In this document: piece by piece, positions 1 through 22,590 of the stretch
Position numbering within the stretch: the stretch's first letter is position 1
Layout of the letters: the number at the start of each line of letters is the position of its first letter
Source of the DNA: Nitrososphaerota archaeon
GTDB taxonomy: Archaea > Thermoproteota > Nitrososphaeria > Nitrososphaerales > Gagatemarchaeaceae
NCBI GenBank assembly: GCA_029785195.1
Contig: JAFMAD010000004.1
Location: forward strand, 69,329 to 101,328
DNA: 32,000 bases
Reading direction: 5' to 3'
Position numbers and translations under genes: made by a program
Notes under the pieces: model-generated
Database searches by the model: none
What the model was told of the DNA's origin: nothing
Seen by the model: the letters and a program-made list of their open reading frames with translations, nothing else

Positions 1-3000
1 CGAGGGCCTCCTCTCTGTCCTTGTAGAGCTGCGAGAGCATAGGAGCCATCCCTTGCTCCCTATCGGGTCCCAGCCCCTCTCCCACGGCCCAGGACACCAG
101 GGCCCTTGCCCCTGACTCGTCGAGGCCTTCCATGCCATCCCGAAGCAGCAGGGCCAGACGGCCTCTGCCCAATGGGACCACCGAGGGGACCGAGAACGGC
201 CCGTGGTGGTCGCCCAAGGAGTATCGCTGAATCGCCTTGGGGACCTTCCAGACCTCTATCCCATGCATCCAGGAGAGGGCATCTAGGTCGCCCGAATTGA
301 ATGCCACGACCCTGGTGTACACCTCGTTCATTATCGCTTCTATGTCATTGGCCCTCGCTTCGGGTCTTTGCGGGAGGTCGGGATAGGAGACGCCATCCAA
401 GGGCCGCGCCTTCCATCGTGTCGCCAGAGACCTAAGGCTCCCTTGGTGGCGCCCATTCACCGTCGTTATCGCCTGCGGGATTGAAGGGAAGAGCTTGACG
501 AGCGACTGGTTCCCTACGAAAGCCTCCACCGGCATCTTCAGGCTAATCGAGTTCGATTCGCCCACCGGCCACGGCACCGCGTCCATCGCAACGGCCCACC
601 CCTTATCTTCTGCAATCGACAGCAACACCAGGACGGCTTCCGTCTGCTGCGAATCGACTGCCATCCCCTTGACGAGCATGCGCAGGAACCGGCGTGTCGC
701 ATCACCGTCCAGGCGCGAGACCCTGAGGGCTCCAAGCCTCTCCGATGCCGACTGTGCGCCGGTCGTCATCGGGATTACCGCCCAGGCGCCGAGGCTCACG
801 GGTTGGTCGATGACACCTCCGTCGTCCAACAGGACGTCCCCCGGTCTCAGCCAGCTGCCCGCGACGAAGACCACCCTCTTCTCGCCGAAGAGCTCTTTCG
901 CCTCGGGTGGGACCTCCTCCGAGTGGGAGTCTAGCACCTTCCAGATGGCCTCGTAGCTTGCCCTGGACCTCGGCCAGCTCGACCCGTCCGACCTCGCCTT
1001 GTCGGACATCAGGACCAAGGCATCTAGCAGGTCCACCGTCTGCATCCTCGAGGTCGCTCCAAGCGCGTCGAGCAAATCTCTCAACGGAGAGGCTTCGTCG
1101 GGAGATAGCACGAGGAGCCCTATCGAGTCGGGTGGGACCGGGAACGCTTCCGGCTTGGCGACAATCCTGACCTTGGCCCCGTCGTACCATCTTTCACCCC
1201 AGTACATGGCAGGCTTCGCCAGCGCGGACCTCCATCTCTCGCGTTCCTTGAGGGGTAGTTTCCTCAAAGATGCCGACAGGCCAACCAGGAGCGAACCGGG
1301 GGGTTCTCGACCGTTCGCGGCGCACTTGGAGTACACCTCCGTCATCTGTCCTAGGGACGGCGAGATTGCGAGGCCCAGGTACATCGCCTTGGCCCCTCCC
1401 TTGTCGCCTAGCGCTTCGACCTTGGCGCGCACGTCGTCGTCCATCTCATCGAGGTCGACGTATGACGCATTGGTCTGCCCCAGAATCGAGACTTTTTCCG
1501 GCGTGGGAAGCATCGCAAGACCCGGCTGGGCGACGCCGGTGATGCCGACGGGCACCCAATCGACCTCCGCCAGTCCGCCTCGGATGGACTCGAGTTGGTT
1601 GGAGTCGTACTCGACCAGGAGGGTGCCGAAGATGTTCGAGAGCAGGCGTCTGTCCGGAGGACGCTCCCTCGACAGGCCCTTGATTATCTGGACGACCTTG
1701 GCAAGGTCCAGCTGGACCACGGCGCCGAGCGCCTCGAGGGTCGAATTCTTCCATCTCTCCGAATCGAAGTCCGGGCTGAGCTGGTGCAACCCCAAGCTTG
1801 CGAGAATTGGACCTGCACCCCGCGCCATCCTGCCGGCCGGATACCAGTCCCCTTTCGGGTCGTAGAGGCATGGCACCTTGGCCATGTCGTCCGGCTCCAC
1901 TCCCCTCTCCGTCTTCTTCTTGTCGAAGTAGACCTGGATGGCAGCCAGCATGGCCTTCTTCTGGGCCTTGAGGACCTCCTCCTTCTCCACGCCAAGGAAG
2001 TCCCTAAGCATCTTGTGCTCGAAAAGCGATCCTAGCCGGGGCGAGATGAAGCTGCGCACGAAGTTCGTCGGGTCGCCAGGCTTCTCCGCCAAGGCCACTA
2101 TGTCGAGGCGGCTCGCCACCCTACGCTTGTCGGAATCGGAGTAGCCCTTCAAATCGAAGATTCTAATTTTCCGCTGCATCTCCGCTGTCAATCCGGGTAC
2201 GGCGAAGGGCATCACGAAAATCCACTCCCTCCGGTAGTTCTCACCTTCGTGCCCCCGATGATCGCGGACGTCTGGAGGCGGGCCCAACGTCCTGACCCCG
2301 TCCAGCACGAACGGGACGAAGCTCTTGCCTATTGCCTTGTCCAACGCCCACGACTCGTGGGTGACCACCTTGAAGACGAGGCGAGAAATCAACCTGTAAT
2401 CTTCGTCCTTGATGTCCTCGAATCTCTGGGGGTCATCGTGGAACTCGGTGTCTATCCATTGCGGGACCTCGTTGAAGGCCACGTCGTGGCGCCACGAGCC
2501 GTCCCTCTCCAGCTCTGTAATCACTCGTTGGATTTCGGGATGGATTCGACGGGTCGGCGAGAGTATCGAGTCCAACTCCGACAGTTCGGACGGCAGACGT
2601 GGGAATGAACCCATCGTCCGGAAGGTGCCTTCAGCGTCCGGGACCAGGGACAGTCCCCTTAGCGCCTCGCCTCCCTTCGCGGTAAGCGCGTACCTGAGGA
2701 CCGACTCGGTGTTGGGCCTGTCGAGCCGCACAGAGTTCGCGCCTGTCGTCCTTCCGTAGCGCAGCGGGCCCTTCGTCTCGAGCACCTTCCAGGCGTCGAC
2801 GAAGTGTTGTACCCCGAAGCTCACTGCCTCGGCCCTGTCCTTCAGCCAGTGAATCTCGTCGAACTTTGAGGTGAACGCCGCTGGCATAGCCGCCTTTCCG
2901 AGTAGCTCGACCACCCTTCTCTCGACTTCGTTTGAGACGTAGTACGACTGCCGTGGCGGGTGCCACGTCCCATCGCCTGTGACGAGTATGGGTTGGCCGA

Positions 3001-4474
3001 ACAGCCAGTCCCTGAGCTCCTTGCCTTCCTCGACTCCCCATGAGATATCCTCCTTGTCAGGTCGCATCCACTCGCGAATCTCCCCTATGGGGAGGGACTG
3101 GAGCACCAGGGCTTCGGCTTCCGCTGGCATTTGGCCAAGGGACCTGACAGATGCAAGGAAGGCGGGGAACGTGTCCTTGTATAGTCTGGCTATCGAACGC
3201 ATGCATTCTCGGTACCACTCCCCGTTGACCTCGTCGTTCCCTTGGATGTCGACCCCCGTGCGGTTCTCTACAGGGAACAGGTGGGCAGAGAACGCGAACC
3301 TGTTCCGGCCCCTCGAAGGCAGGGGAATGACGCTGTAGAGGTACTGTTTCCTGGCAGGGAAGAGGGGGAATAGGATGTGCACGTGGTTCTTCTTTATCGG
3401 CAAATCGGTGGGCCCCTTCTTCAGGTCTATTCGGATCACGCCTCTGCTGCCCCTCAGCAGGAAGAGCGCCTTCCCTTCATCGTCCTTGACCGACGCCGAG
3501 GCCGCGAAGTACCTCTTCGCATCAGGTGTCTGGTAGTCCCACCCGTTGGAGTCGAAGGAGGGCGGGCAGGTGCCTATCTCCACTGCTTCGTGTGGGTCCC
3601 AGCGGTACCACGTCTTCCCTGAGGCCGCCAATCCCTGCTTGACTTCGACGACCCGCGCCTTCTCGAGAGGCATGTTCAGGCCGAAGTCTCTTTCGGCCTG
3701 GTACGCTTCAGGGCGGTTGTCAGCGTTCCAGACGATTCGAATCGCCTTGAGCCTCTGGCAGCACAAGAGGACGTCGCAGAGGTAGCCCTTCAGGTCGTTG
3801 TAGAACGACCTCACGTCCTCAGGGCCCCATCGAGGGAAGTCCTTGGCCGCGAAGGGCCTTTCCCGCGCACCAATCACCTCCTTCGCGGCCGTCTCGTCTC
3901 GCCAGGGGAGCCTGAAGAGCACACCCTTCGCCTTCTCGTCTTTGCTTCCCGCGTACGGGGAGTGGAGATGTCCCTCCAGGTTGTTCCACTCCATGCTGAG
4001 CGGGTTCAGGGCCCTGGAGACGACGTTCGAGTGCACCTCCGGGTGGTTCGTGATTGCGTACACCGTCTGGAACCCGCTCCCGAAGTGGCCGGTCGATTCC
4101 AAGTCGTATTCCTTGAAGCGCTTGAGGACCCTCGACGACCTGTCGAAGTCGCACCCCTCATATGACCCCTTTGGCCCGATGGTCGTGAAGGCCCTCCCGT
4201 TGTTTGCGATGTAGAGGGCGTCCTTCTCGAACCTGAGTACCAGAATAGTCGCCCCGGCGTCGTCTGCGTTCTGCACCAGTTCCCGGATGACGAACTTGCT
4301 CCTGTCCTCGTCCTCCGTCCGCGTGACAGCTATCCTCGTCTTGATCCAGTCGAGGAAGTTCAGCGAGTAGCCCTTGTCCATGTCGTCCTGGCACATCCAC
4401 CTGCCATCGGGCGCGGTAACTTCGTCAGGGAAGGGTGGCTCTTTCCCGCAAACGACACACACGACCTTTGCCAA
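1..4474 (-). CDS. Giant sacsin-like GHKL (Bergerat-fold) ATPase with an N-terminal Cys-rich zinc-ribbon-like segment. Partial: the C-terminus lies beyond the window start.
   Basis: My own reverse-strand translation from TTG 4474-4472 has no stop down to base 2 (1491 codons). That TTG lies 2 nt after the helicase TAG stop at 4479-4477. The ORF is absent from the supplied track, presumably because it has no stop inside the window. Motifs read: CVVCGKE..(18)..WMCQDD; FVIRELVQNADDAGA (ExxxNxxD N-box); STGHFGSGFQTVYAITNHP (Gly-rich ATP-lid box); YSVIPLPSRGRNRFAFSAHLFPVENRTG...EWYRECMRSIARLY (resembles the sacsin repeat region). The start is uncertain: GTG 4462 or downstream ATGs are alternatives. 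Confidence 0.85.
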   Translation of the reverse strand, partial: MAKVVCVVCGKEPPFPDEVTAPDGRWMCQDDMDKGYSLNFLDWIKTRIAVTRTEDEDRSKFVIRELVQNADDAGATILVLRFEKDALYIANNGRAFTTIGPKGSYEGCDFDRSSRVLKRFKEYDLESTGHFGSGFQTVYAITNHPEVHSNVVSRALNPLSMEWNNLEGHLHSPYAGSKDEKAKGVLFRLPWRDETAAKEVIGARERPFAAKDFPRWGPEDVRSFYNDLKGYLCDVLLCCQRLKAIRIVWNADNRPEAYQAERDFGLNMPLEKARVVEVKQGLAASGKTWYRWDPHEAVEIGTCPPSFDSNGWDYQTPDAKRYFAASASVKDDEGKALFLLRGSRGVIRIDLKKGPTDLPIKKNHVHILFPLFPARKQYLYSVIPLPSRGRNRFAFSAHLFPVENRTGVDIQGNDEVNGEWYRECMRSIARLYKDTFPAFLASVRSLGQMPAEAEALVLQSLPIGEIREWMRPDKEDISWGVEEGKELRDWLFGQPILVTGDGTWHPPRQSYYVSNEVERRVVELLGKAAMPAAFTSKFDEIHWLKDRAEAVSFGVQHFVDAWKVLETKGPLRYGRTTGANSVRLDRPNTESVLRYALTAKGGEALRGLSLVPDAEGTFRTMGSFPRLPSELSELDSILSPTRRIHPEIQRVITELERDGSWRHDVAFNEVPQWIDTEFHDDPQRFEDIKDEDYRLISRLVFKVVTHESWALDKAIGKSFVPFVLDGVRTLGPPPDVRDHRGHEGENYRREWIFVMPFAVPGLTAEMQRKIRIFDLKGYSDSDKRRVASRLDIVALAEKPGDPTNFVRSFISPRLGSLFEHKMLRDFLGVEKEEVLKAQKKAMLAAIQVYFDKKKTERGVEPDDMAKVPCLYDPKGDWYPAGRMARGAGPILASLGLHQLSPDFDSERWKNSTLEALGAVVQLDLAKVVQIIKGLSRERPPDRRLLSNIFGTLLVEYDSNQLESIRGGLAEVDWVPVGITGVAQPGLAMLPTPEKVSILGQTNASYVDLDEMDDDVRAKVEALGDKGGAKAMYLGLAISPSLGQMTEVYSKCAANGREPPGSLLVGLSASLRKLPLKERERWRSALAKPAMYWGERWYDGAKVRIVAKPEAFPVPPDSIGLLVLSPDEASPLRDLLDALGATSRMQTVDLLDALVLMSDKARSDGSSWPRSRASYEAIWKVLDSHSEEVPPEAKELFGEKRVVFVAGSWLRPGDVLLDDGGVIDQPVSLGAWAVIPMTTGAQSASERLGALRVSRLDGDATRRFLRMLVKGMAVDSQQTEAVLVLLSIAEDKGWAVAMDAVPWPVGESNSISLKMPVEAFVGNQSLVKLFPSIPQAITTVNGRHQGSLRSLATRWKARPLDGVSYPDLPQRPEARANDIEAIMNEVYTRVVAFNSGDLDALSWMHGIEVWKVPKAIQRYSLGDHHGPFSVPSVVPLGRGRLALLLRDGMEGLDESGARALVSWAVGEGLGPDREQGMAPMLSQLYKDREEAL

Positions 4475-4476
4475 GT

Positions 4477-7278
4477 CTAGGAGCCTGACCTCTCTGCCGC
4501 GCTCGGGCGGATTGTCGCTATATACTCTAAGGACGCATGCGGTCCCGCCGATTCTTCGGTGTCGTCATGCCCTCCCTTTCTTGTCTTGACCCATCTTTCG
4601 AAGTCGGCCTCCACCTCCGTGCTGACGTGTCGGGGTAGGAGAATCGAAGGCGCGAATCTGAGCGGAGCAGTCTCCAGGGAAGAGACTGTCTCTGCGAGGA
4701 GAGTTCCCGTCAGCTTCTCGGCTCTACCATGGGAGTCGGACCAATACGTGATGTTGGCCTCTGTGCCCAATCGGCCTCTGCAAGAGTACCTACAGATTGT
4801 GACTCCAGAGGTCATCCCGTTCCATTCGAAGCCGAGAGGTTTTCCGCTGTCAGGGGGGTCGTTGAACGAATTCAGCGTCACGACGGAAGCCAGCTTCACG
4901 AGCGGGCTCAACGGCGTCGCGAACAAGCCCTCGCGCGCGGCGTGCTTCGCAAGAGTAATCATCAGTTCCTTGTCCCGGTAGGAAAGGAGCTGTGCCCTGA
5001 CCCGCTCCTCTAGGCCGTGTCCGGTGGCGTCTTTGATGGCTATGACGTCGTCGTCGGCGACGGGCCCGATTACTACGCCCCCTTCGTCTTCGAGGGCGAC
5101 TTTGGCTCTCCCACCAGAGAACACGGAAAGCAGCCGGAGCACTGGCAACCAACTCAACCTTCCGAGGTCGCCCGACCGCTGGGCCCTGAGCGTCCTGGTC
5201 TGCTCGTCGAGTAGGTCCTCCACCCCTGCTAACGGTCCAACTTCGACGAGTTCCTTTTCGGTCGCAGCCCGCCTCTCTTCGACGATTCTGGCTTCTGCTT
5301 CGCCAGTCCCAGTAGCGGCCGACTCGAGTACCGCAGGGGAATCACCGATGGCCCTTGCGAAAATCTCGAGCCTCGTATATAATGTTCCGAGTATGTGTTC
5401 GTCCAAGGAGCCCTCGACGACTAGGTTGTGGATGGAAACCTCCTTCGAAGCCTGTCCTATCCTGTCGATTCTCCCGATGCGCTGCTCCACCCTCTGCGGG
5501 TTGTATGGGAAGTCGTAGTTCGCAAGCGTGTCGGCTGCCTGGATGTCCAACCCTTCGGAAAGGAAGTCGGTCGAAATCAGCACCGCAGGCCCCTCCCAGG
5601 ACTTGAAGGCACTCAGTGTCTCCTCCACCTTGAAGTCGCTGTCGTCGCCAGAAAGCGCGAAGGCCCTCATGCCGTCCAAGTCGCCGAGCCTGCGGGTGAG
5701 GTAGCCCCAAGTGTGCCTCCATTGCGTGAAGACGATTGCCTTGTGGGGCCTCCCATCGGACCGAGGTTCTCTCAGCTGAAGAAGAATCGAGCGCAGCTTC
5801 TCCAGCTTGCTGTCGGTCCTTAGCAGCCCGAACTTGGCGACCAACTCCGAGCATTTCTCCCGGGCCCCGGGCGGGAGGGAGCCTCGGACCACGTGGAAGC
5901 CCTCGGCGTCGTCCCTCTCCTTGACAGAGAGGGGGCTCTCGATTTCATCCCCATGCTGCCAGACGTCGAAGCCCTCCATGCCCCCGTTGAGTAGCTCGAC
6001 CGTCGCGGGCAGGCAGGAGGAGAGCTGCATCCTGTGCACGTGGCTGAAGTGTGATTGCAGCAACGAGTCGACCTCGTGGTACAGGCTCGACTCCGACACT
6101 CTATTCTTCCCTCGATTGCCTGTCCTCGAGCGGGGACGTCTGTTTAGGGCCACCGAGTGGTTGGTCACGACCCGGGTCCGGGACTCCCCTACGTCGCTCC
6201 TGCGAGCCCTCGTCATGATGGCTTCGAATGGGTTCAGAAGGGCCAGTCGTTGGGCGAGGCCGGCCCTCAGGTTATGGGACGATTCGGTACCATAGCTTTC
6301 GAGCAGGGATCCGACTTCGCCGTCGTTGGCACCTTCCGCGAGGGAAATCAGCCTCTCGGTCACGCTAATCCCTAGTGGCCGGCCAGCCAGTACGTCCCGT
6401 ATGGTAGTGTTGACGAGGGCTGCCGAGGATGCGTCCCGGTCGAACTCGGCCTTCTTCACCTCCCTCCCGAAGATGACCTCGAGCACGCGGCGGAGATCGT
6501 CCATCTCGAGATGGACTGGGGTCGCGGAGAGACCCACGGCCGCCTTGGCGATGGCCGATATCTGGAACGCCATCGTCCTCCTCTGAGTGTCCCCGCCCCG
6601 GCCAATCAGGTTGTGGACCTCGTCGATTACCACCAGGTCGATGGACGGCGGCGTGCGTGCCTCGGCTGCGGTGCCTTCCCAATTCGAGTCGTAGGAGACG
6701 ATTGCCCTGAACCCGCCCTTCGTGAACAGCAGTTCCTTGAGCCGTCTGCCGCTCGTTATCTCGAAGTACAGCCCGAACCTGCGCCACAGCTCGTCTCGCC
6801 ACTTCAGTCTCAGGCCGCCAGGGCATAGGACTAGGACCCTGGCCGAAGGCTCCGACGTGAGTTCCTCCACCAGTATGTACGCGGATTCGATGGTCTTGCC
6901 CAGGCCTACTTCGTCTGCGACCAGGATTCTACGCGAAGGCGACCGCAGGTACTTCAGCAGAGGGCGGAACTGGTAGGCGTTGAAATCCACCTTAGCGTCG
7001 AACGCCGCCCACGTCCCGACGGCCTTCGACGACATCCTCGCTACGATTCGCATTAGCCCGTCCCTCGGTGAGGAGATTCCCTCGAGCGCGCAGATTTCGA
7101 GCCCGGACTGCTGCAGGGGTTGTGCCAAGGACGGAGGCAAAGGCTTGACTCTTCTCAGGTGGAAAGTGTCTGCGCGCTCGGCGACGCTATATCCTGTCCC
7201 CGTGACGACGTAGATTGGCCCTTCCTTCCCTTTCGGACACACTAGTCTTCCAATCTTGGAGTCTTCGGGCCCAATCAT
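4477..7278 (-). CDS. SNF2-family (SF2) DNA-dependent ATPase/helicase, 933 aa, with an uncharacterised C-terminal extension of about 280 aa
   Basis: Track ORF. Motif I LVADEVGLGKTIES; motif II DLVVIDEVHNL (DExH); motif III GLSATPV; motifs V/VI LISTDFLSEGLDIQAADTLANYDFPYNPQRVEQRIGRIDRIGQ. I saw no recognisable nuclease or methyltransferase motif in either terminal extension. Confidence 0.93.
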   Translation of the reverse strand: MIGPEDSKIGRLVCPKGKEGPIYVVTGTGYSVAERADTFHLRRVKPLPPSLAQPLQQSGLEICALEGISSPRDGLMRIVARMSSKAVGTWAAFDAKVDFNAYQFRPLLKYLRSPSRRILVADEVGLGKTIESAYILVEELTSEPSARVLVLCPGGLRLKWRDELWRRFGLYFEITSGRRLKELLFTKGGFRAIVSYDSNWEGTAAEARTPPSIDLVVIDEVHNLIGRGGDTQRRTMAFQISAIAKAAVGLSATPVHLEMDDLRRVLEVIFGREVKKAEFDRDASSAALVNTTIRDVLAGRPLGISVTERLISLAEGANDGEVGSLLESYGTESSHNLRAGLAQRLALLNPFEAIMTRARRSDVGESRTRVVTNHSVALNRRPRSRTGNRGKNRVSESSLYHEVDSLLQSHFSHVHRMQLSSCLPATVELLNGGMEGFDVWQHGDEIESPLSVKERDDAEGFHVVRGSLPPGAREKCSELVAKFGLLRTDSKLEKLRSILLQLREPRSDGRPHKAIVFTQWRHTWGYLTRRLGDLDGMRAFALSGDDSDFKVEETLSAFKSWEGPAVLISTDFLSEGLDIQAADTLANYDFPYNPQRVEQRIGRIDRIGQASKEVSIHNLVVEGSLDEHILGTLYTRLEIFARAIGDSPAVLESAATGTGEAEARIVEERRAATEKELVEVGPLAGVEDLLDEQTRTLRAQRSGDLGRLSWLPVLRLLSVFSGGRAKVALEDEGGVVIGPVADDDVIAIKDATGHGLEERVRAQLLSYRDKELMITLAKHAAREGLFATPLSPLVKLASVVTLNSFNDPPDSGKPLGFEWNGMTSGVTICRYSCRGRLGTEANITYWSDSHGRAEKLTGTLLAETVSSLETAPLRFAPSILLPRHVSTEVEADFERWVKTRKGGHDDTEESAGPHASLEYIATIRPSAAERSGS

Positions 7279-7298
7279 CTATCGTGTTGCCGCGCGTC

Positions 7299-7323
7299 GA
7301 ACGGCGCCGTTCTCGATATAAGA
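7299..7323. promoter_or_regulatory. Perfect 14-bp palindrome GAACGGCGCCGTTC (7299-7312) abutting a TATA-like ATATAA (7316-7321), in the divergent intergenic region
   Basis: Read directly. The palindrome equals its own reverse complement. The TATA-like element is about 40 nt upstream of the helicase ATG (7278, minus strand) and about 49 nt upstream of the GTG at 7367 (plus strand). This is consistent with a shared bidirectional archaeal promoter plus operator. Confidence 0.4.
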
Positions 7324-7366
7324 TTGGCAGTGTTCCCGTCGGATTTGTCTGGACAATCCCGAAGGT

Positions 7367-8260
7367 GTGCTGTGTCATGACAGCTCCGTTCGACAAAATC
7401 GCATCAATCTGACGGACGCGTGTTTCACGTTCTTATGTCGCGACCGAAATCCAAAGAGCGTGGCGACATGGCTGGCTGTCGGCCATCCTGACGACTGGCG
7501 GACGGCCAGAGAAAGAGGGATTTGGGGCCTCGCCGAAAGGCACGTCCGACTCTGGCAGGAGACCGCTCCGGGCGACGAAATCGTCTTCTACGCGACATGG
7601 CCCGTGCGAGGGATAATAGGTCACGGGCGGATTGAGTCCAAGTTCAGGTCCGGCGAGACGGTCTGGCCTCGGGAGCTGGCCGAGAACAGGGTGATATGGC
7701 CCTACAGGCTCAGACTCAGAATAGAGTACCTACTTCCGGAGGAGCTGTGGGGGTTCCGGCGCGTTGAATCCGAGCCGGCCAAGAGGAGGGCGCAGGGAGG
7801 GTTCCAACGTCTCGAAGAGAAACTCGCCAGCCGTGTAATCGCCGAGCTGGTTGAGCGAGAAACAAGCCCAGAGTTGACTCCCGTGCTCCAGGGCTTCTTC
7901 CGAAGCGTGCAGAGCGTGCTGGAAGCATCCAGTGGAGCTATCAGATGGCCCGAAGATGAGTTCAGAACTCTCCTTAAAGGCATGACAGAGGTGCTAATGG
8001 ATAATGCGTTCATGATAACCGAGAGAGGCGACCGTTATGGAAGGAGTCATCAAGTGACGCTGCTGGTCATGAAGGAGGTCGAGGTATTCACCTCAGCGGT
8101 CGAAAGGGACTCGAATCAACCGATGAATCCCGAGCTCGTCCGCTCAAGGGCCGGGCAGGCGAAGACCATCAAGGACACGTTAGAGGCGCACCTGAAAATC
8201 CCCTCCTTCCTGAAGGGCGTCTTCGAAATCGTCAATGAACTCCTCAACATGGTCAAATGA
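7367..8260 (+). CDS. EVE/PUA-like (ASCH/EVE superfamily) N-terminal domain protein with an unknown, probably helical C-terminal half of about 160 aa
   Basis: Track ORF. WLAVGHPDDWRTARERGIWGLAERHVRLWQETAPGDEIVFYATWPVRGIIGHGRIESKF...VIWPYRLRLRIEYL follows the pattern of archaeal EVE-domain proteins (W..n.W....g.WG...GD.i.FY....i.G.g.i...yP.R..i). The true start may be the in-frame GTG at 7460 (MATWLAVG...). Confidence 0.65.
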   Translation: MLCHDSSVRQNRINLTDACFTFLCRDRNPKSVATWLAVGHPDDWRTARERGIWGLAERHVRLWQETAPGDEIVFYATWPVRGIIGHGRIESKFRSGETVWPRELAENRVIWPYRLRLRIEYLLPEELWGFRRVESEPAKRRAQGGFQRLEEKLASRVIAELVERETSPELTPVLQGFFRSVQSVLEASSGAIRWPEDEFRTLLKGMTEVLMDNAFMITERGDRYGRSHQVTLLVMKEVEVFTSAVERDSNQPMNPELVRSRAGQAKTIKDTLEAHLKIPSFLKGVFEIVNELLNMVK

Positions 8261-8326
8261 TGGGGACGGTTAGACACTCAGGTCTCTCGAGTCTCCAAGC
8301 CTTAATATTCGAGATTCGAATCACGA

Positions 8327-9652
8327 GTGATGGACTCTGAGCACGAGTGGCTAACGGGTCTCAGGTACGAGGACTTGTGGGCATACATCAAAACACAGAA
8401 GGGGAACAATGAAGCCCAAAGGAGTTACAACGCGGGGATAGGGGCGCTACTAAATGAAATCAACAAAGTCCCGCAATTCAGGGGCAAAATCTCCCCAGAC
8501 GACGTAGATTACGCCTTCAAGGAGGCGCTCGAAAAAATCAAGGAACCTCTGAGTAGGACGGGCAAGAGAAAGCTGGAAGCCATCCTGCGAAAGTGGATGG
8601 GAGTGGAGCGTGACTACGACTTCCACTTTGACTTGGGCTGGCTGATTGGCTTCCCTGTGGGCTTCCAGTTCGGCTATGGAGAGTTGAGGCCCTTCTCCAG
8701 GTTGCCAAGGATGAACAGGCCTTACGTCGAACGGGGCTTTGAGATGGCAGCGGCGAGGCTGAAAACGCCAGCCAGGATTGATTTCGCTCCTAGTGAGGTC
8801 GAACGATGGTTCCTCTGTATAAGACAGCGGACGATTGGATGGCATAACGCGGCAGAGAGAGCAGATTTTCTCGCTACCCGGAGCCTCGCAGCGTACGAGC
8901 TCGTGACTGGAGTCGCAGAAATCGAATCCTGGTCTTTGGCAACTCCTCCTCGCCACGACCTTGTCGTTGTTTGTCACGACAGGAAGCGGACGGGAGGCCG
9001 CTATCACGCTCGCCCACCCCTCCAACTCGTCATTAATTTCCCCGGTTCAGGTTTCGATGAACTGATGAACAAGATGACTAGGCTGATGAGGAATGAGAAC
9101 CGCACCGAAATTGAGAACAGGATAATGGCTGTAGTCGAAATCTTCGCTATGCTCCAGGGAGGGGTGCAACTGGAGGCAAAGTACCTGCTGAAAGTAATCT
9201 CGCTTGAGGCCCTTTTCCTATCTGAGGACGACCGTGACTATCTCGGGTACAGACTGGCCGAAAAGATTGCGTTCCTGCTTGGTGACGACAAGCTCTGGAT
9301 GGCCATAACCTACGAAAGGCTACCACACTTGGGGTTCAGCGGGAATCTGAGAGAACTGGGAGACCAATATATCGACGACAAATTCGCGGAGACCAAGAAG
9401 TCAGACGCGCGGCGCCGTTTGAACAGAGAGGTCGTTAGGCTTTATCGCAAGAGATCGGCATTCGCTCACCAGCAACGAAGGAACTTGGAGAGCCTCATAA
9501 CCCCGTACGATTACGATATGGTCTCATGGTTGCTGAGACTTTCAGTGGTCAAGATGCTTTCCCTTACAGAAAGAGGAGTAACCCACCTCAGGAAGCGGAG
9601 CGACGACGACCCTTCGAGCTTCGACCAACTCGTTGAGAAGCTGAAGTACTGA
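8327..9652 (+). CDS. Hypothetical 441-aa protein with a C-terminal HEPN-like Rx4H motif (Apea/Abi-like arrangement, tentative)
   Basis: Track ORF. The C-terminal region reads VISLEALFLSEDD ... VVRLYRKRSAFAHQQRRN. RSAFAH is an R-x4-H motif, preceded upstream by a conserved-looking acidic helix, as in HEPN RNases. I did not recognise the N-terminal 300 aa. Confidence 0.7.
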   Translation: MMDSEHEWLTGLRYEDLWAYIKTQKGNNEAQRSYNAGIGALLNEINKVPQFRGKISPDDVDYAFKEALEKIKEPLSRTGKRKLEAILRKWMGVERDYDFHFDLGWLIGFPVGFQFGYGELRPFSRLPRMNRPYVERGFEMAAARLKTPARIDFAPSEVERWFLCIRQRTIGWHNAAERADFLATRSLAAYELVTGVAEIESWSLATPPRHDLVVVCHDRKRTGGRYHARPPLQLVINFPGSGFDELMNKMTRLMRNENRTEIENRIMAVVEIFAMLQGGVQLEAKYLLKVISLEALFLSEDDRDYLGYRLAEKIAFLLGDDKLWMAITYERLPHLGFSGNLRELGDQYIDDKFAETKKSDARRRLNREVVRLYRKRSAFAHQQRRNLESLITPYDYDMVSWLLRLSVVKMLSLTERGVTHLRKRSDDDPSSFDQLVEKLKY

Positions 9653-9755
9653 GGAGGATTGCTTCATCGTCAAATCATCGGCGAAGCATGTTCGAAGCGC
9701 GCGGTAGTCAAGCGGTTGAAGGCGGAATGTCTTTTATCATCCAACAGATTCGGCC

Positions 9756-10862
9756 TTGCCTGCTACTTTGTCTGAAACCGATGAGGATTCTGGTTTTCTG
9801 GAGCCGCTTGAGGACGAATTGGAAGACATGCGCAGAGCAGTACGAATCGAGAGCAAGCTGTACTCCTATCCGGCGGACTTCCCCCTGCAAGTCCTCCATG
9901 AGAAGATAGACAGCGGAGAGATAGACTTCCCTCCGTTCCAAAGGAAGTACGTCTGGACAAAGGAGAAGGCGTCCATGCTGATTGACTCTTTCATGCGACG
10001 CCTTCCTGTGCCTCCCGTGTACTTGTTCACCACGTCCAAGGGTACTCTGCTTGTGGTAGACGGCCAACAGAGATTACGAACCATCAAGCGGTTCTTCGAG
10101 GACAGGTGGGAAGACGGTGAGGAATTCGAACTCGTCTTAGCAGACGACAACCCTCTGAACAACAAGCGATTCCAAGACCTCGACGAAGCAGATCAGAAGA
10201 AGCTCAAGAATGCTGTGATGAGATCCATGGTGATAGAGCCCAAGTCCGGCAGATATGACAATGCGATGTACGACATCTTCGAGAGGTTGAACACGGGTGG
10301 GATGCTCCTGATGCCTCAGGAAATCAGGAACTGCGTGTACCACGGAGCCTTGAATGACTCGATTATCAGACTAAACAGACTGGCTGATTGGAGGACTATA
10401 GTCGGCACCGCAGAGGAGGACAAGCGCCTCAGAGACGTCGAGCTCATTCTGAGAGGGGTGGCCCTGTCGAATCTGGGGAAGGACATCGGCCCCGAACCTC
10501 CTTTGAGGTATAAACCATCCATGAAACAATTCCTCAACGACTTCATGAAGACTATGCAGGATCCGAGCAAGGAATGGGTTGGTGACATGGAATCGACTTT
10601 TACGACGACTGCTCGGCTTATTGTCAAGACTTTGGGTGAAACGCCGTTTCATGTCACACGAGCGATGAGGGCGCCCACATACGACGCTGTGTTCGTCGCC
10701 TTCGCCAAGCACCCCGAATCAATCCCCCCGGATATCAAGGAAAGGTACGAACTGCTTAAGGCAGATGCCGATTTCAAGAAGTATACCGAAGAGCGTCCAA
10801 CCGGTGCGAAGAGTGTCAATGGACGGCTCGACCTAGCGGAGAAAGTGCTTTTTGGGGGATAG
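9756..10862 (+). CDS. DUF262 (ParB/Srx-like, GmrSD N-terminal type) protein without a DUF1524/HNH nuclease domain
   Basis: Track ORF. IDFPPFQRKYVWTKEKASMLIDSFMRRLPVPPVYLF...LLVVDGQQRLRTIKRFF carries the FQRxxVW and DGQQR signature motifs. The C-terminal 170 aa has no H..N..H-type nuclease motif. The TTG start at 9756 is uncertain. Confidence 0.88.
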   Translation: MPATLSETDEDSGFLEPLEDELEDMRRAVRIESKLYSYPADFPLQVLHEKIDSGEIDFPPFQRKYVWTKEKASMLIDSFMRRLPVPPVYLFTTSKGTLLVVDGQQRLRTIKRFFEDRWEDGEEFELVLADDNPLNNKRFQDLDEADQKKLKNAVMRSMVIEPKSGRYDNAMYDIFERLNTGGMLLMPQEIRNCVYHGALNDSIIRLNRLADWRTIVGTAEEDKRLRDVELILRGVALSNLGKDIGPEPPLRYKPSMKQFLNDFMKTMQDPSKEWVGDMESTFTTTARLIVKTLGETPFHVTRAMRAPTYDAVFVAFAKHPESIPPDIKERYELLKADADFKKYTEERPTGAKSVNGRLDLAEKVLFGG

Positions 10863-10864
10863 CG

Positions 10865-11356
10865 ATGCCCTTCAGCGACGTGACGGACCGGCTCAACGAA
10901 GACAGCTTGGTCCTCGACATGCTCCGGAGAAGCAGGATCGACCTACGAACTATCTCGAAACTCGAGAACATGATGGTAAGAGACCTGCTTATCGTCATGT
11001 ACACGACCTACCAAGAACACGTGGTCGAGGTGGTGCTGAAGAAGGTGAAACGCCACAGCGATAATCACGAAGCCATTGTGAACTTCGTCCGGCGCAAGAT
11101 TGAGGAAACCAACATCGACACCTTCGCTTTGAAGAAGCTGCTGAAGCAACTACTTCCGAGTTATGCGTCAAACTTCGAGTTCGCATTGAAAGACAGAGAG
11201 ACCACTTCCGCTTACATGAACATAATCACAGGGAGAATAGATGTAGCTCATCACCAGGGGAACAACCTCCAGATTGGTTCCCTCGTCGAAATCGCAGAAG
11301 CTCACGTCCATGCTCAACGATTGCTACAATCATTCGAGAGTTGCATGTATGCATGA
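10865..11356 (+). CDS. Small (163 aa) HEPN-like protein with an Rx4H motif, of the kind associated with DUF262 (MAE_28990/MAE_18760-like, tentative)
   Basis: Track ORF. Its ATG lies 2 nt after the DUF262 stop, so the pair is tightly coupled. NIITGRIDVAHHQGN contains R-IDVA-H (Rx4H) in the C-terminal third of an all-helical-looking protein. Confidence 0.65.
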   Translation: MPFSDVTDRLNEDSLVLDMLRRSRIDLRTISKLENMMVRDLLIVMYTTYQEHVVEVVLKKVKRHSDNHEAIVNFVRRKIEETNIDTFALKKLLKQLLPSYASNFEFALKDRETTSAYMNIITGRIDVAHHQGNNLQIGSLVEIAEAHVHAQRLLQSFESCMYA

Positions 11357-11441
11357 TTCGCATGCTGGATTCTGTGTTCCATCTCAATCGTCGGGTTCGG
11401 GTACGTACCATTAAGTAAGTAGCCTGCCGCCAGTTTGAGAA

Positions 11442-12143
11442 TTGGAATTTCAAAGGATAGATGACATCCAGGCAAGCACCGTGAAGGTATCCAGCGATGC
11501 GGGGGAAGGAAGCGGTGTGCTTCTCGGAAAAAGTGGGCATGTAGCTACTTGTGCCCATGTCGTAGGAGAGAACAAGAAGGGTGAAATCCTATGGTTCGGC
11601 GCCCCCGACCTCAACACAGCTTACCAAGTCGAAGCAATCGACGAGGAATGGGATGTCGCTGTCCTCAGAACGGACCCCAACCTGTTCGAGCAACTGAATG
11701 GGACCGTCAAGGTCAATCCGCTAACTTTCGTCACAACCAGGGGTGAAATCAAAGCAGGAATGGTAATCGGTATCTGTGGCTATCCGTGGGTGACAGGATT
11801 GCGCGAGAAGCCGGACATATCTAGGCATCCTCCTTCGATTACACTTGGAATCGTATCCCTTTGGCGAGGCGAACTCAGCGAGACAATCATGCTCGGCGCG
11901 AATCTTCACCAGGGAAATAGCGGCGGTCCGGTGTTTAACGAATTCGGTCTGGTTCTGGGGCTTGCTTCGCAGAGCACGGTGTACAAGAAGGAGGAGATTG
12001 GAAGCGTGCTTTCGATGGGTTTGCCGCTGGGCTACGGCGAAATGGTCCCGATGCAATTGGTAAACATCCTGATAGTGAGGGAGAGGCTCAAGGTCGAGTG
12101 GACCCCAACGAGTCGGATAGGTAGTCATTTCAGCAAATCGTAG
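11442..12143 (+). CDS. Trypsin-like (chymotrypsin-fold, Trypsin_2/DegP-protease-domain type) serine protease with no signal peptide and no PDZ domain
   Basis: Track ORF. Triad contexts: GSGVLLGKSGHVATCAHVV (His), WDVAVLRT (Asp), HQGNSGGPVFNEFGLVLGL (Ser). The N-terminus MEFQRIDDIQASTVKV is not hydrophobic. Confidence 0.85.
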   Translation: MEFQRIDDIQASTVKVSSDAGEGSGVLLGKSGHVATCAHVVGENKKGEILWFGAPDLNTAYQVEAIDEEWDVAVLRTDPNLFEQLNGTVKVNPLTFVTTRGEIKAGMVIGICGYPWVTGLREKPDISRHPPSITLGIVSLWRGELSETIMLGANLHQGNSGGPVFNEFGLVLGLASQSTVYKKEEIGSVLSMGLPLGYGEMVPMQLVNILIVRERLKVEWTPTSRIGSHFSKS

Positions 12144-12166
12144 TGCTAGATTACCTTCATCGCAGG

Positions 12167-12586
12167 TTACCCTTGCACCAAGGGCCTCCCAAATATCTTG
12201 CTTTGGTGCCACATGAGGAACCTCTTCGCAGGTGCCCCTTTCCCTAGCTTCCTGAAACTCAGAGTGACCAATCTAACCTGTCTCAGGGTCGCCGGGGTGA
12301 AGGCCTTTCGGCAATAACTCACCCGGTAAGACGGGTACTCTAAGGTGATGAATCCCTCCCCGAAAAGGTTGTCATGAAGGGAACACATGAGGATGACATT
12401 CTCGTCCTGTCCTCGCTCCTTCTCACCTTTTGCCCAGCCCTTGATATGGCCGGCTATCAGGAGCGGTGGGGAATCTATTTTGCAGAGTGCACATTGGGTG
12501 CCATAACGAACAAGGGCACGTCTCCTAATTTCTCTCCTAGGACTGTTTTCGGTCCGAGTCCCGTCGGAATCGAGTCTGACTCGTTC
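12167..12586 (-). pseudogene. HNH endonuclease (HNH_2-like, of the kind found in type IV restriction proteins), 5'-truncated remnant
   Basis: My translation of the stop-to-stop frame reads ...RRRALVRYGTQCALCKIDSPPLLIAGHIKGWAKGEKERGQDENVILMCSLHDNLFGEGFITLE... This gives CxxC, then the HI and N motifs, then LHDNLF. There is no ATG, GTG or TTG between the upstream in-frame TAG (12589-12587) and the CxxC. The first canonical start (12388, the track's 73-aa ORF) falls after the first catalytic His. Confidence 0.5.
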
Positions 12587-12720
12587 CTAACCTGACAGCG
12601 GACTAGCGTTCAACCCCGACTTGCGTCTGCGGCAATCAAAGCTTGGTTGTCGATTCGAATCGCAAAGTTCTCCGGAATCGTCATTAGTTGTGCGATTGTT
12701 CGGCTTTTGCCTTATGCGAA

Positions 12721-12756
12721 TCGGATTTGAACCCACCTAGGTAGTGATAAATCCGA
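12721..12756. repeat. 36-bp imperfect palindrome: 8-bp outer arms TCGGATTT/AAATCCGA around a central ACCTAGGT
   Basis: Read directly. Arms at 12721-12728 and 12749-12756 share a centre with the CCTAGG core (12736-12741). 13 of 18 half-site positions are symmetric. It lies in a gene-poor stretch of about 470 bp (12596-13067) between the island and the core genes. Confidence 0.5.
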
Positions 12757-13067
12757 CCCGCAGCAAGCGGTCAACGTTCGGAGAGGCGGCTTTGTGTGCC
12801 GCAACGGGGAGCGGTTCGCAGACAGACCACAGTTCGACGACCAACTCAAGCAGCGTCCGGGCAAACTCGCCGTACGCGATTGCTGTAATAGGGCACTTCC
12901 AAAGGGGTCATCGAAGGTCGATGAAAACGGCACCTTCGCTTCGACAAAAGAACGCGCTGACAACGACGTGCCTTCTCCCAACACGTGTTGACTAGACTAG
13001 CTTTGTCTTCCCAAGTCTCACGCCTAATCCCAAGACAATCCGCGCCTCCGATCCTATTCGACTCATC

Positions 13068-13565
13068 ATGATTCTGCCTCAAGTCCTGAACGCCGTCATT
13101 CTCTGGGTCCACCTCCTCATGGCTGTCCTCTTCGTGGGCGGCTCGTTCTTCATGTGGCTGGTGGTCGTGCCTTCGTCCCGGCTGACGACGGCCGACGAGT
13201 CGGAGCGGACTCGGATTACGGGGGTGATTGCAAAGCGGTTCGGAAGAATGACCAACATTGTCCTGGTCATACTCGTCCTCACAGGCATCTACAACGCGTC
13301 CTGGTACCTCCCCTCGACCGCTGCCCTCTTCGACACCCCCACAGGGAACATCCTTCTCCTCAAGGTGATACTTGTAGGCGCGCTCGTTCTCCTCATCTAC
13401 GTGCATAACGTCTACTTTGGGAAGAAGATCATCCAACTCGCCAGGGAGAAGAGGCTCGAAGAATTGAAAGCGCTCAGGAAGAGGAGCCGGTTGGTCTCGG
13501 CCGCCAACCTAGTCTTGATGCTGGTGATTCTACTCCTCGCAGTCATGTTGCAGATGCCCTTCTAG
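13068..13565 (+). CDS. Small polytopic membrane protein, CopD-family-like (tentative)
   Basis: Track ORF with 4 hydrophobic segments. VILWVHLLMAVLFVGGSFFMW resembles the CopD HLLaaalWvGG motif. Confidence 0.65.
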   Translation: MILPQVLNAVILWVHLLMAVLFVGGSFFMWLVVVPSSRLTTADESERTRITGVIAKRFGRMTNIVLVILVLTGIYNASWYLPSTAALFDTPTGNILLLKVILVGALVLLIYVHNVYFGKKIIQLAREKRLEELKALRKRSRLVSAANLVLMLVILLLAVMLQMPF

Positions 13566-13679
13566 CTATGCCGCCAAGACACGGGCGGACATGCGGGGTC
13601 CGACGCCAGTTAGCCCCGCGGATTCCTCTATCGCGTTTTTCGACAGGGACCCGGGGCGCTGCTCTCGGCTACGTGTAGC

Positions 13680-13994
13680 TCAAGTCGTCTTGAGCAGGAT
13701 GTGCTCTCCTTCAACCCGCACCTCGTAACATGGTTGGGGCTTTTCCGCCGGCGACCGGACCACTGCTCCCGTCCTGACGTCGAACTGCGAGCCGTGCCAC
13801 GGGCAGGTCACTACGTGGCCCTCCAATCTCCCTCGTGCAAGAGGTCCGCCCATGTGGGTGCACGAGTTTCCCATCGCGAAGAACTCTCCTCCGACATTCG
13901 CCAGCATGATTTTGTTCGCACCCACGCTGACTTCCTTCATCTTGCCTTCTTGGACTTCGTTTCTGCTTGCGACCCTCACGAATTCGCCAGGCAA
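13680..13994 (-). CDS. Rieske [2Fe-2S] ferredoxin
   Basis: Track ORF. It carries CTHMGGPL and CPWHGSQFDVRTG, the CxH...CxxH Rieske ligand boxes. Confidence 0.9.
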   Translation of the reverse strand: MPGEFVRVASRNEVQEGKMKEVSVGANKIMLANVGGEFFAMGNSCTHMGGPLARGRLEGHVVTCPWHGSQFDVRTGAVVRSPAEKPQPCYEVRVEGEHILLKTT

Positions 13995-13997
13995 CTT

Positions 13998-14309
13998 TCA
14001 CTTACCCCGCCGCGACGTCTCGGCCCTGCTGTGCGCTAGTCCTAGTTCCTCTTCTGCCTTCATAGCCTTCTCCTGAAGGTCATCGATGTTTTGCCGTGTT
14101 GTCTCCTCGAAGAGATTGCACCAGTCGCGTCCTGAGACTATCAGGTTGTACTCCCTTAGCTTCGGATGAACGCACTTTCCGCGCTCCAGCAAGTCGGCGT
14201 TGATCGGATCGTTGGGTGAGAACCATGCACACGCCAGGCAATTCTCGTCCTGCCAAGCCAGCCTCCTCAGGCTTCTCCGGAGCTCTGGTTCCGTTCCTTT
14301 CGTTCGCAT
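13998..14309 (-). CDS. Small 4-Cys protein, HiPIP-like (tentative)
   Basis: Track ORF spaced 3 nt from the Rieske gene. ENCLACAWF...ERGKCVHP...VSGRDWCNLF gives a C-x2-C-x18-C-x17-C pattern with GxC and (G/D)WC contexts like high-potential iron-sulfur proteins. Confidence 0.45.
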   Translation of the reverse strand: MRTKGTEPELRRSLRRLAWQDENCLACAWFSPNDPINADLLERGKCVHPKLREYNLIVSGRDWCNLFEETTRQNIDDLQEKAMKAEEELGLAHSRAETSRRGK

Positions 14310-14313
14310 GAGA

Positions 14314-14667
14314 CTATCCAGCCCTCGAGGTCCCCTCTATCGCGTCTTTCAGGAGAGACCTGTGGCAGATTGTCGGGTCCTTCTCTGTACAAAGCAGCGT
14401 GATCGTTCCCTTTCTGGACTCTTCCGCCAAGCCCCTGAGAAGCCCCTCTTTCCCTTTCAGGCTCTCTTTGTATTTGGCCGCGAATTTGTTCCAGGAAATC
14501 TTTCCGTCCTTCCATTGCCTTATCAGCTCCTTCGGGGTCCCGAGATCCCTCATCCAGACATCGACCTTGCTTTTCGAGATGCCTCTCGGCCAAATCCTCA
14601 TCACGAGGATTCGTTTTCCGTCCGAGGGCTCGGCTTCGTCGTAGATTGACTTCTGTATTCTTATCAT
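14314..14667 (-). CDS. DUF488 family protein (short YeaO-like form)
   Basis: Track ORF. DGKRILVMRIWPRGISKSKVDVWMRDLGTPKELIRQW...ITLLCTEKDPTICHRSLL matches the YeaO/DUF488 pattern (RiLVDRlWPRG...W.k.laPS.eLr.w). Confidence 0.8.
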   Translation of the reverse strand: MIRIQKSIYDEAEPSDGKRILVMRIWPRGISKSKVDVWMRDLGTPKELIRQWKDGKISWNKFAAKYKESLKGKEGLLRGLAEESRKGTITLLCTEKDPTICHRSLLKDAIEGTSRAG

Positions 14668-15891: not shown

Positions 15892-15923
15892 TCGGGCTCG
15901 CCCTGCCTCTCGTTCACGCGACC

Positions 15924-18861: not shown

Positions 18862-18865
18862 CCTT

Positions 18866-19006
18866 CTATCCTCCCGTCGCCATGTCTCGTCCTATGGCGC
18901 AGTCGCACCCCTCGACCTGGCCGCACGACGGACAAGCGCACCTGCACTGGTCGATGGGGTCCTGGCAGCCGGGACAGACGTCCAAGCGCGTTTCGTCAGC
19001 AACCAA
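18866..19006 (-). CDS. 46-aa Cys-rich mini-protein (8 Cys), a possible metal-binding accessory of the OFOR operon
   Basis: Not in the track (under 60 aa). My translation from TTG 19006 reads (M)VADETRLDVCPGCQDPIDQCRCACPSCGQVEGCDCAIGRDMATGG*. Its last codons (GGA GGA TAG) supply a GGAGGA Shine-Dalgarno-like box 5-10 nt upstream of the OFOR alpha ATG (18861). It fills the gap between the ferredoxin and OFOR genes. Confidence 0.4.
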   Translation of the reverse strand: MVADETRLDVCPGCQDPIDQCRCACPSCGQVEGCDCAIGRDMATGG

Positions 19007-19032
19007 TTAGTCTATTCACACCTCTAATCGCT

Positions 19033-19461: not shown

Positions 19462-19473
19462 GCTCCTCTCCCC

Positions 19474-19800: not shown

Positions 19801-19837
19801 GGCCCAAGGTATGTCCGGAGCAGATATGGGAATTTTA

Positions 19838-19885: not shown

Positions 19886-19908
19886 CGGAAGGCTGAAGGC
19901 ATTGAGGC

Positions 19909-20556: not shown

Positions 20557-20588
20557 GGAGCCCGCTTCGGAGAGGGACGCCACAAGCG

Positions 20589-22265: not shown

Positions 22266-22275
22266 GGATGTCCCC

Positions 22276-22587: not shown

Positions 22588-22590
22588 CCC

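Follow-up and report, generated by a model that had tools for sequence, protein, structure and literature searches.

A sacsin-type GHKL ATPase in a predicted DISARM/Dpd-family defence operon of a Nitrososphaerota archaeon

The SNF2 and GHKL genes and their operon

To which system do the two abutting genes at the left end of a 32,000-nucleotide stretch of a Nitrososphaerota archaeon contig (JAFMAD010000004.1; hereafter, the window) belong? The first encodes an SNF2-family ATPase and the second a GHKL ATPase of the sacsin type, and an earlier note on this DNA had put the pair forward as a candidate undescribed two-gene system. We found that the two genes are followed, beyond the window edge, by genes for a YprA-family helicase fused to a PLD nuclease and for a C5 cytosine DNA methyltransferase. 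It is probable that the window holds gene 1 and about 90% of gene 2 of a four-gene defence operon of the DISARM/Dpd family, similar in kind to restriction-modification (R-M) systems. The operon would be a rare variant of that family, in which both the defence function and the role of the GHKL protein are presumed.

Gene 1 occupies positions 7278..4477 of the minus strand and encodes 933 residues, as read from its open reading frame (ORF) and translation. Its TAG stop (4479-4477) and the TTG start of gene 2 (4474) are separated by the 2 nt AC, and the whole junction spans positions 4474..4479 on the minus strand; the coordinates and the gap that the earlier note had given for this adjacency were exact. 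In the reading frame of gene 2, TTG 4474 is the first candidate start codon downstream of an in-frame stop, and the N-terminus read from it (M-AKVV-C-VV-C-G) agrees with the family consensus M-x4-C-x2-C-G. The NCBI call starts at Met28, giving 1,628 residues and cutting off the conserved zinc-ribbon cysteines, and the ENA call, which starts at GTG 4462, is also shorter than the TTG 4474 version. Gene 2 leaves the window after the first 1,491 of its ~1,659 codons (1..4474, minus strand, from the translation); on an identical contig (L001/L032), the full-length protein has 1,655 residues as called and 1,659 from the TTG. From the tight junction, we infer that the SNF2 and GHKL genes are co-transcribed. 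The 88-nt divergent intergenic region 5' of gene 1 (7279..7366) contains a TATA-like TTATAT (7316-7321) lying ~40 nt ahead of the gene 1 ATG, as read directly from the sequence, which is a candidate promoter.

Gene 2 runs on for 506 nt past the window edge, and the apparent absence of DUF1998, PLD and methylase modules is a consequence of that cut. The earlier note had excluded DISARM on this absence; the observation was true inside the window, but all three modules are encoded by genes 3 and 4 beyond the edge, and the exclusion was thus wrong. The continuation was read from identical public contigs, namely ENA ERZ27237285 k141_126025 and two Logan assemblies, with the corresponding NCBI proteins MDG6920636-38. 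On contig L032, the genes for the DrmD-like SNF2 protein (gene 1, 2210-5011), the sacsin-type GHKL protein (gene 2, 5026-9993, for the 1,655 residues called), a 1,938-residue YprA-family helicase with a DUF1998 module and a C-terminal PLD domain (gene 3, 10001-15817) and a 606-residue C5 cytosine DNA methyltransferase (gene 4, 15810-17630) lie on the same strand, with a gap of 8 nt between genes 2 and 3 and an overlap of 8 nt between genes 3 and 4. With four genes packed tightly on one strand, a two-gene system at this locus was not borne out.

The domain calls of the earlier note, SNF2 and sacsin-like GHKL, were confirmed by Pfam and NCBIfam matches. In the gene 1 product, the SNF2 motifs I (GLGKT), II (DEVH), III (SATP) and VI (QRIGRIDRIGQ) were intact, and Pfam matched Helicase_C (4.5e-19), SNF2-rel_dom and ResIII. 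Among the PADLOC models, DrmD was the best match (1.1e-66), with DpdE and BrxH also matching. Because its NCBIfam scores lie below the cut-offs (DrmD, 246 bits against 610; DpdE, 154 bits against 500), the predicted protein is related to DrmD and DpdE but is the equivalog of neither. Its close clade comprised ~35 clusters, beyond which the similarity fell sharply to generic SNF2 proteins of ~1,040 residues; in the next-closest clade of that length (Ramlibacter and another genome), the partner was an unrelated ~600-residue protein and no sacsin-like partner was found.

The gene 3 product matched Pfam DEAD (1e-12) and Helicase_C with intact helicase motifs, and its sequence contains a DUF1998-like Cys/His cluster and an aligned, intact PLD motif, IHPK...GSANLT (HxK...GSxN). 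In its orthologues, the DUF1998 (MZB, MrfA-Zn-binding) and PLDc_2 matches were significant (9e-7 and 4e-6, respectively), and PF13091 is precomputed across most of the family. The best PADLOC match was DpdJ (4.8e-44), followed by DruE and DrmA (DrmA, 5.7e-11); NCBIfam gave DpdJ at 132 bits (cut-off 800) and, at residues 1816-1910, DpdK at 27.5 bits (cut-off 100), with no NCBIfam match to DrmA. The predicted protein (MDG6920636.1) would correspond to DrmA, DrmB and DrmC, or to DpdJ and DpdK, in one chain. The gene 4 product contains motifs I, IV (PPCT), VI, VIII and X, the catalytic motifs being present, and it matched Pfam DNA_methylase and the dcm superfamily (128 bits). In PADLOC, it matched MTase_II, DruM and DrmMII, the generic MTase_II model scoring higher than DrmMII (2.9e-34).

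The order SNF2-GHKL-YprA/PLD was constant in eight independent loci from Nitrososphaerota, Thermoplasmata and metagenome-assembled genomes (MAGs) labelled Thermotogae and Chloroflexi (L002; L003; L004, Thermoplasmata; L005, a MAG labelled Thermotogae; L008; L038; and the divergent Chloroflexi/TARA loci L036/37). Wherever the sequence extended far enough, the three genes lie on one strand and abut or overlap; at the SNF2-GHKL junctions in L002, L003, L004, L005, L008 and L038, the genes overlapped by up to 11 nt or were up to 10 nt apart, at 27-39% identity. The adjacency of the predicted SNF2 and GHKL genes is far above chance. Homologues of the pair were thus syntenic, in the same order and on the same strand across loci, and the pair lies within a variable, defence-type neighbourhood. 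The GHKL protein had 78 word-indexed homologues, and a scan run exhaustively over 1.84 billion representatives returned only 57 clusters at E<=1e-30, with named sources including Nitrososphaerota, Thermoplasmata and Methanonatronarchaeum. The homologue in the isolate Methanonatronarchaeum sp. AMET6-2 is WP_247139939.1. With co-occurrence judged by equal size of contig, 35 of the 53 clusters of GHKL homologues whose contigs reach 14 kb or more co-occurred with a YprA-PLD match, as did 14 of the 22 close SNF2 clusters with a sacsin or a YprA-PLD match, either being counted. No relatives were found in IMG/VR, and in the plasmid collection the matches were confined to distant GHKL domains, a Haematobacter plasmid locus there containing a RecB-like nuclease and two giant hypothetical proteins.

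An orthologous C5 methylase of ~600 residues was found near the trio, in varying positions, at the native locus and in L003, L004, L005, L008 and L038. In L037, the sole methylase gene is truncated by the locus end and was counted apart from these orthologues, and L004 contains an additional Dam-type methylase. Vsr is encoded near the trio in L002, L003 and L038. The other neighbours were variable and often of defence type, such as GmrSD_N, AIPR, an AAA_5/McrB-like ATPase, the SLFN-g3 helicase and a MazG-like protein. In L038, a 652-residue ORF directly after the YprA-PLD gene (16147-18105) encodes a paralogue of the C-terminal third (DUF1998-PLD) of that protein, with 34% identity and an E-value of 4e-116. 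Genes for a MazG-like protein, an SLFN-g3/DUF2075 helicase and a short C5 methylase adjoin the operon in two otherwise different loci (L032 18168-21705 and L035 2449-5813), and these may form a second, co-travelling system.

A housekeeping origin was weighed against this distribution. The genes could form a DNA-repair operon with a YprA/MrfA-type helicase, a MutL-like GHKL protein and Vsr-linked repair of 5-methylcytosine (5mC) deamination: one branch of the YprA family is related to repair (10.1101/2025.09.15.676423), Vsr and Dcm-type methylases occur at several loci, and the combination of GHKL protein, nuclease and helicase recalls the MutL/UvrD arrangement. However, the family is rare and patchy, as the 57 clusters among 1.84 billion representatives indicate, and it is scattered over unrelated phyla with variable, defence-type neighbours. 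The best matches of gene 3 are, moreover, defence YprA proteins (DpdJ, DruE and DrmA), with a PLD nuclease in addition, and a repair operon is extremely unlikely.

The sacsin-type GHKL protein and its possible role

The GHKL (Bergerat-fold) ATP-binding domain of the gene 2 product spans residues ~58-250 (3725..4303, minus strand), with the N-box at 4259-4285. It matched Pfam SACS (PF25794; 6e-12, 46.3 bits, cut-off 32.8) and NCBIfam P_loop_sacsin (NF047352; 52.8 bits, cut-off 50); the predicted membership is in the sacsin-type GHKL domain family only and not in the sacsin protein architecture. The motifs are RELVQNADDA (N-box), ANNGRAF (G1) and GHFGSGFQTVY (G2), and residues R64, E65, Q68, N69, D71, D72, N91, G93, F96, G129, F131, G132, G134 and F135 were invariant in 32 homologues. 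These invariant residues of the N-box, G1 and G2 argue for an active ATPase. A search of the Protein Data Bank (PDB) by sequence and profile matched only sacsin SR1 (5v44-47; E 1.5e-13). AlphaFold2 models were obtained for residues 1-1150 (mean predicted local distance difference test score, pLDDT, 86.3) and 1156-1655 (pLDDT 90.7), and in a Foldseek search with the former, sacsin SR1 was the top match (E 3.6e-8), followed by Hsp90 N+M, with topoisomerase II ATPase and MORC3 weaker. The assignment of the protein to the sacsin branch by the earlier note thus held, as sacsin/Hsp90 with intact ATP-binding motifs.

Two further regions have the appearance of zinc-binding modules. An N-terminal zinc-ribbon-like motif (residues 6-33; 4376..4459, minus strand) was recognised from the family alignment; its consensus, MxxxxCxxCG...GxWxCxxC in two alignments, reads C-x2-C-G ... 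W-x-C-x2-D/C here, with Asp at the position of the fourth ligand in the window protein. At the C-terminus, encoded outside the window, lies an HNH_2-like zinc domain with the motif CQxCG..E..S..GG..N.LYLCPxH, which is conserved in GHKL homologues. Pfam HNH_2 was detected in 3 of 10 homologue fragments below the cut-off (best E 0.0026), and the model of residues 1156-1655 gave one weak PDB match, to the HNH restriction enzyme TagI (Foldseek E 0.34, probability 0.96). This domain may derive from HNH enzymes and serve in the binding of zinc or DNA, its activity being uncertain.

Several known proteins were tried as counterparts of the gene 2 product and rejected. No PADLOC DrmE match was obtained among six sacsin-like proteins, and NCBIfam gave no match to DpdG, DpdH or DpdI. 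As a candidate for Tiamat TmtA, the protein aligned only at residues ~60-200, to positions ~34-166 of profiles with 1,300-1,780 positions. A MORC-type assignment was likewise dropped, with no match to HATPase_c_3 and with MORC3 at rank 38 (E 6e-4) among the fold matches. The ancestral link to eukaryotic MORC-SNF2 pairs that the earlier note raised is conjecture.

A mechanism can be proposed by analogy with DISARM, in which unmethylated DNA stimulates the DrmAB ATPase and 5mC damps it (PMC9142583). The C5 methylase would mark host DNA, and the YprA helicase-PLD protein would engage and degrade unmethylated incoming DNA. In the most speculative step, the GHKL protein would dimerise upon ATP binding to form a DNA-bound clamp, which, together with the SNF2 translocase, would scan or loop DNA and license the helicase-nuclease. 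Such a step would resemble the action of MutL or of MORC/paraMORC proteins with helicases and nucleases, clamp-type action having been proposed for the MORC/paraMORC GHKL proteins of R-M operons (PMC2292703).

Some observations weigh against a DISARM/Dpd-family defence operon with a DNA clamp. Every component of the operon stays below the equivalog cut-offs that NCBIfam sets for DISARM and Dpd. The native gene 3 product matched Pfam DUF1998 (MZB) weakly (E 0.037), and the Asp of classical HxKx4D is missing from its PLD motif. In L002, Vsr is present but no methylase within the available sequence. The closest GHKL structures are those of chaperones (sacsin and Hsp90), not of DNA clamps, and the general-base His is not conserved in the HNH_2-like domain, where Ser, Arg or Lys occupies its position; a nuclease role of the GHKL protein is therefore doubtful. 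That the operon defends, that it has a methylation motif and that its proteins form a complex are likewise things that we infer.

The structural matches raise the question of whether the GHKL protein acts on DNA at all. In the same four-gene system, it could be a sacsin/Hsp90-type chaperone or switch that assembles the ~1,900-residue helicase-nuclease or keeps it inactive, without forming a clamp. The lead of sacsin SR1 and Hsp90 N+M over topoisomerase II and MORC3 in sequence and structure fits this explanation, as do the lack of a MORC/HATPase_c_3 family match and an HNH-like domain that appears to have no general base. In contrast, contact with nucleic acid is suggested by both zinc modules, the ribbon and the HNH_2-like domain with TagI as its top fold match, and by the obligatory SNF2 partner, a dsDNA translocase; a case for action on DNA has also been made for the GHKL proteins of R-M-like operons (PMC2292703). 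On balance, a chaperone role seems unlikely but deserves consideration.

Related systems and free-standing pairs

The predicted four-gene operon was compared with known systems. It resembles DISARM in the triad of helicase, DUF1998 and PLD, in the DrmD-like SNF2 protein (class 1), in the C5 methylase (class 2) and in its defence-island context. The differences lie in the fusion of the triad into one chain of 1,938 residues, in a helicase that scores DpdJ above DrmA, in the absence of DrmMI and of a DrmE match for any protein tested, and in the extra gene for a GHKL protein of ~1,655 residues between the SNF2 and helicase genes. Of the features by which DISARM is recognised, a PLD nuclease and a methyltransferase in the operon are both present (the fused PLD domain and the 606-residue C5 methylase), but a separate DUF1998 (DrmB) gene is not, the module being fused to the helicase. 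The locus fits neither PADLOC definition of DISARM (I or II), and it does not fit the gene sets that define Dpd, Druantia and ARMADA. A separately encoded DUF1998 is described as typical of DISARM, whereas helicase and module are unsplit in Dpd (10.1101/2025.09.15.676423).

Similarity to Dpd was evident from gene 3, which scores best as DpdJ with a C-terminus scoring as DpdK, from the match of the SNF2 protein to DpdE and from the unsplit helicase-DUF1998 arrangement. In contrast to Dpd, the 25.8-kb gene list of L032 contains neither DpdA/B/C (7-deazaguanine) nor DpdD/F/G/H/I and has a C5 methylase instead, and gene 3 keeps the DUF1998-like Cys/His cluster that is lost in canonical Dpd (10.1101/2025.09.15.676423). 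Druantia, ARMADA, BRIGADE and TALON resemble the operon in a giant helicase of the YprA family to whose C-terminus a nuclease is fused, and in the partners of this helicase, a methylase and an SNF2/BrxHII-like helicase (10.1101/2025.09.15.676423). However, ARMADA combines a PglX-like methylase with a Vsr nuclease domain, whereas the window operon has a C5 methylase and PLD and no PglX-like gene, and DruA-D, DruH, DruF and DruG of Druantia are absent from it. The text of the paper on the YprA family (10.1101/2025.09.15.676423) mentions no GHKL or sacsin partner.

The GHKL protein itself has relatives in other settings. Tiamat (TmtA), a protein of 1,300-1,800 residues with an N-terminal sacsin-type GHKL domain, is the sole PADLOC family that it matched; the match covers ~130 N-terminal residues, and Tiamat is a single-gene anti-phage system, whereas the gene for the window protein invariably lies between SNF2 and YprA-PLD genes. 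Operons of MORC/paraMORC proteins combine a GHKL protein with an SWI2/SNF2 helicase, an HNH or HKD nuclease, a cytosine methylase and Vsr (Iyer, Abhiman and Aravind 2008, PMC2292703). They share the functional theme and offer the best mechanistic analogy for the window operon (PMC2292703), but they were described without a YprA/DUF1998 helicase, and the window protein belongs to the sacsin/Hsp90-like branch. The SR1 ATP-binding domain of eukaryotic sacsin is the closest solved structure, and the two domains of the bacterial giant proteins described below echo the sacsin repeats. The similarity is confined to the GHKL core, at ~100 residues in sequence and ~270 alignment columns in structure; unlike sacsin, the window protein is without UBL, DnaJ and HEPN domains, and its context is DNA defence, not proteostasis. 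In the openly searchable literature, outside which the subscription-only DISARM and Tiamat originals lie, no paper was found that joins sacsin or GHKL with DISARM, DUF1998 or SNF2 in prokaryotes, and we found the GHKL component of a DISARM/Dpd-like operon to be undescribed.

Sacsin-like genes were also found in DISARM loci. A paralogous class of ~2,060 residues showed ~32% identity to the native GHKL protein over the first ~610 residues. In L035, the order is C5 methylase, Vsr, sacsin-like gene (2,066 residues), SNF2, DrmA, DrmB and DrmC, with DUF1998 (DrmB) separately encoded, as is typical for DISARM; the NCBIfam scores were 939 bits for DrmA (cut-off 950), 408 for DrmB (cut-off 240) and 107 for DrmC (cut-off 133). 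In the Freyarchaeota chromosome CP147778.1 (L007 9962-20992), a gene encoding a sacsin-like protein of 2,134 residues stands directly before a drmD-like SNF2 gene, which is followed by a C5 methylase gene; in PADLOC, this protein matched TmtA only, with no DrmE match. The chromosome appears to be the genome of a Genome Research paper in which a Freyarchaeia system goes under the name "DISARM class II", its drmD being unexpected; the passages searched do not mention the sacsin-like gene. In a Promicromonosporaceae MAG (L012 4840-20306), two C5 methylases, a TmtA-like GHKL protein of 1,626 residues with a C-terminal helicase region, DrmA and DrmB are encoded, and this putative locus is a further association of a sacsin-type GHKL protein with the DISARM core. 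If the free-standing bacterial cassette described below is counted, a sacsin-type GHKL protein is paired with a DrmD-like SNF2 protein in three or more architectures; the YprA cores differ, and either gene can come first.

In several bacterial genomes, a gene for an SNF2 protein of ~895 residues comes directly after an ORF of 2,540-2,650 codons whose product has an N-terminus of the sacsin type. This widespread cassette was present in genomes L017, L018, L020, L021, L024, L028 and L030 and in metagenome loci L043-L122 (e.g., L051 2310-12691). The ~895-residue protein matched the PADLOC DrmD model PDLC02634 end to end, with 914 bits. A metagenome scan with the bacterial SNF2 protein returned 472 relatives, from which 80 loci were kept, and the giant gene was directly upstream of the SNF2 gene in all but one of the kept loci with at least 600 nt upstream. 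The giant protein of ~2,550 residues has two sacsin-type GHKL domains, one N-terminal and one at residues ~1590-1715, and its C-terminus matches the PADLOC candidate PDC-S68. In 15 long bacterial loci, the flanks were not conserved, and neither DrmABC nor a conserved methylase was found; in a minority of the pairs (L091, L112 and L064), a large YprA-like helicase gene follows.

With non-conserved flanks, this bacterial pair is a free-standing two-gene pair, though not one at the window locus. The class imagined by the earlier note therefore seems to exist in bacteria, while the window locus, as part of a four-gene operon, is no example of it. Could the SNF2 and GHKL genes of the window nevertheless be an autonomous surveillance system, with the downstream helicase-nuclease and methylase forming a separate neighbouring one? 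The 15 long loci without conserved flanks, DrmABC or methylase speak for such autonomy, as does the recurrence of the pairing with different YprA cores in either gene order. However, the four archaeal genes share one strand, genes 2 and 3 being 8 nt apart and genes 3 and 4 overlapping by 8 nt, YprA-PLD comes directly next in every archaeal-type locus with enough sequence, and co-occurrence was observed in 35 of 53 clusters. The bacterial giants, moreover, have only the ~90-residue GHKL core in common with the window protein, and an autonomous pair at this locus is very unlikely.

A broader scenario, held tentatively and with rather less than even confidence, is that a sacsin-type GHKL protein and a DrmD-type SNF2 protein constitute an ancient, portable and, as far as we found, undescribed two-protein module for DNA surveillance, which would occur as a cassette in bacteria and be plugged into fused Dpd-like or split DISARM YprA cores in archaea and some bacteria. 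This module may also be the prokaryotic source of the eukaryotic sacsin ATPase repeats, in parallel to the MORC story.

DISARM, Dpd and Druantia are widespread, and the working of the accessory SNF2 protein (DrmD/DpdE) is not understood; a structural paper on DISARM urges the study of DrmD and DrmE (PMC9142583). A conserved, obligatory GHKL partner leads to a concrete hypothesis, that of an ATP-driven clamp combined with a translocase. Loci that would be mis-classed or called incomplete with current tools also gain a giant gene that has gone without annotation, an example being the Freyarchaeia system published as DISARM class II with an extra drmD, whose description, in the passages searched, makes no mention of the adjoining 2,134-residue sacsin-like gene. 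In addition, the sacsin ATPase fold, known from the human ataxia protein and Tiamat, is now linked to predicted helicase-based immunity, and a simple bacterial two-gene cassette that is directly testable has been brought to light.

Neighbouring genes in the window

The earlier note had placed the pair among HEPN, DUF262, EVE and HNH genes. The DUF262 assignment was clear, at 1e-28 for the DUF262/GmrSD_N gene at 9756-10862. The EVE and HEPN assignments were weak: the EVE-like gene (7367-8260), divergent from gene 1, matched Pfam below the cut-off (4e-4) and PDB entry 2p5d (E 9e-6), and the RiboL-PSP HEPN gene (10865-11356) matched at 2.7e-4, also below the cut-off. No HNH gene was detected by the Pfam scan of the neighbouring genes, parts of the EVE-like and DUF262 proteins being read by eye only. 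A 441-residue ORF without an assigned family (8327-9652) and a gene for a trypsin-like peptidase (11442-12143) were also present. None of these genes recurs next to the trio elsewhere, and the EVE-like, DUF262, HEPN-like and trypsin-like ones, whose stretch falls partly within an islet of low G+C content (G+C fraction 0.51-0.54 over 8-12 kb vs ~0.60 in the flanks), were therefore left out of the system.

No tRNA genes were found in the window. Positions 14668-31516 encode proteins of ordinary metabolism and regulation, including 2-oxoacid:ferredoxin oxidoreductase subunits, a pyridine-nucleotide-disulphide oxidoreductase, a ferredoxin, two HTH_10 regulators, two hemerythrins, ComA (phosphosulfolactate synthase) and MmgE/PrpD.

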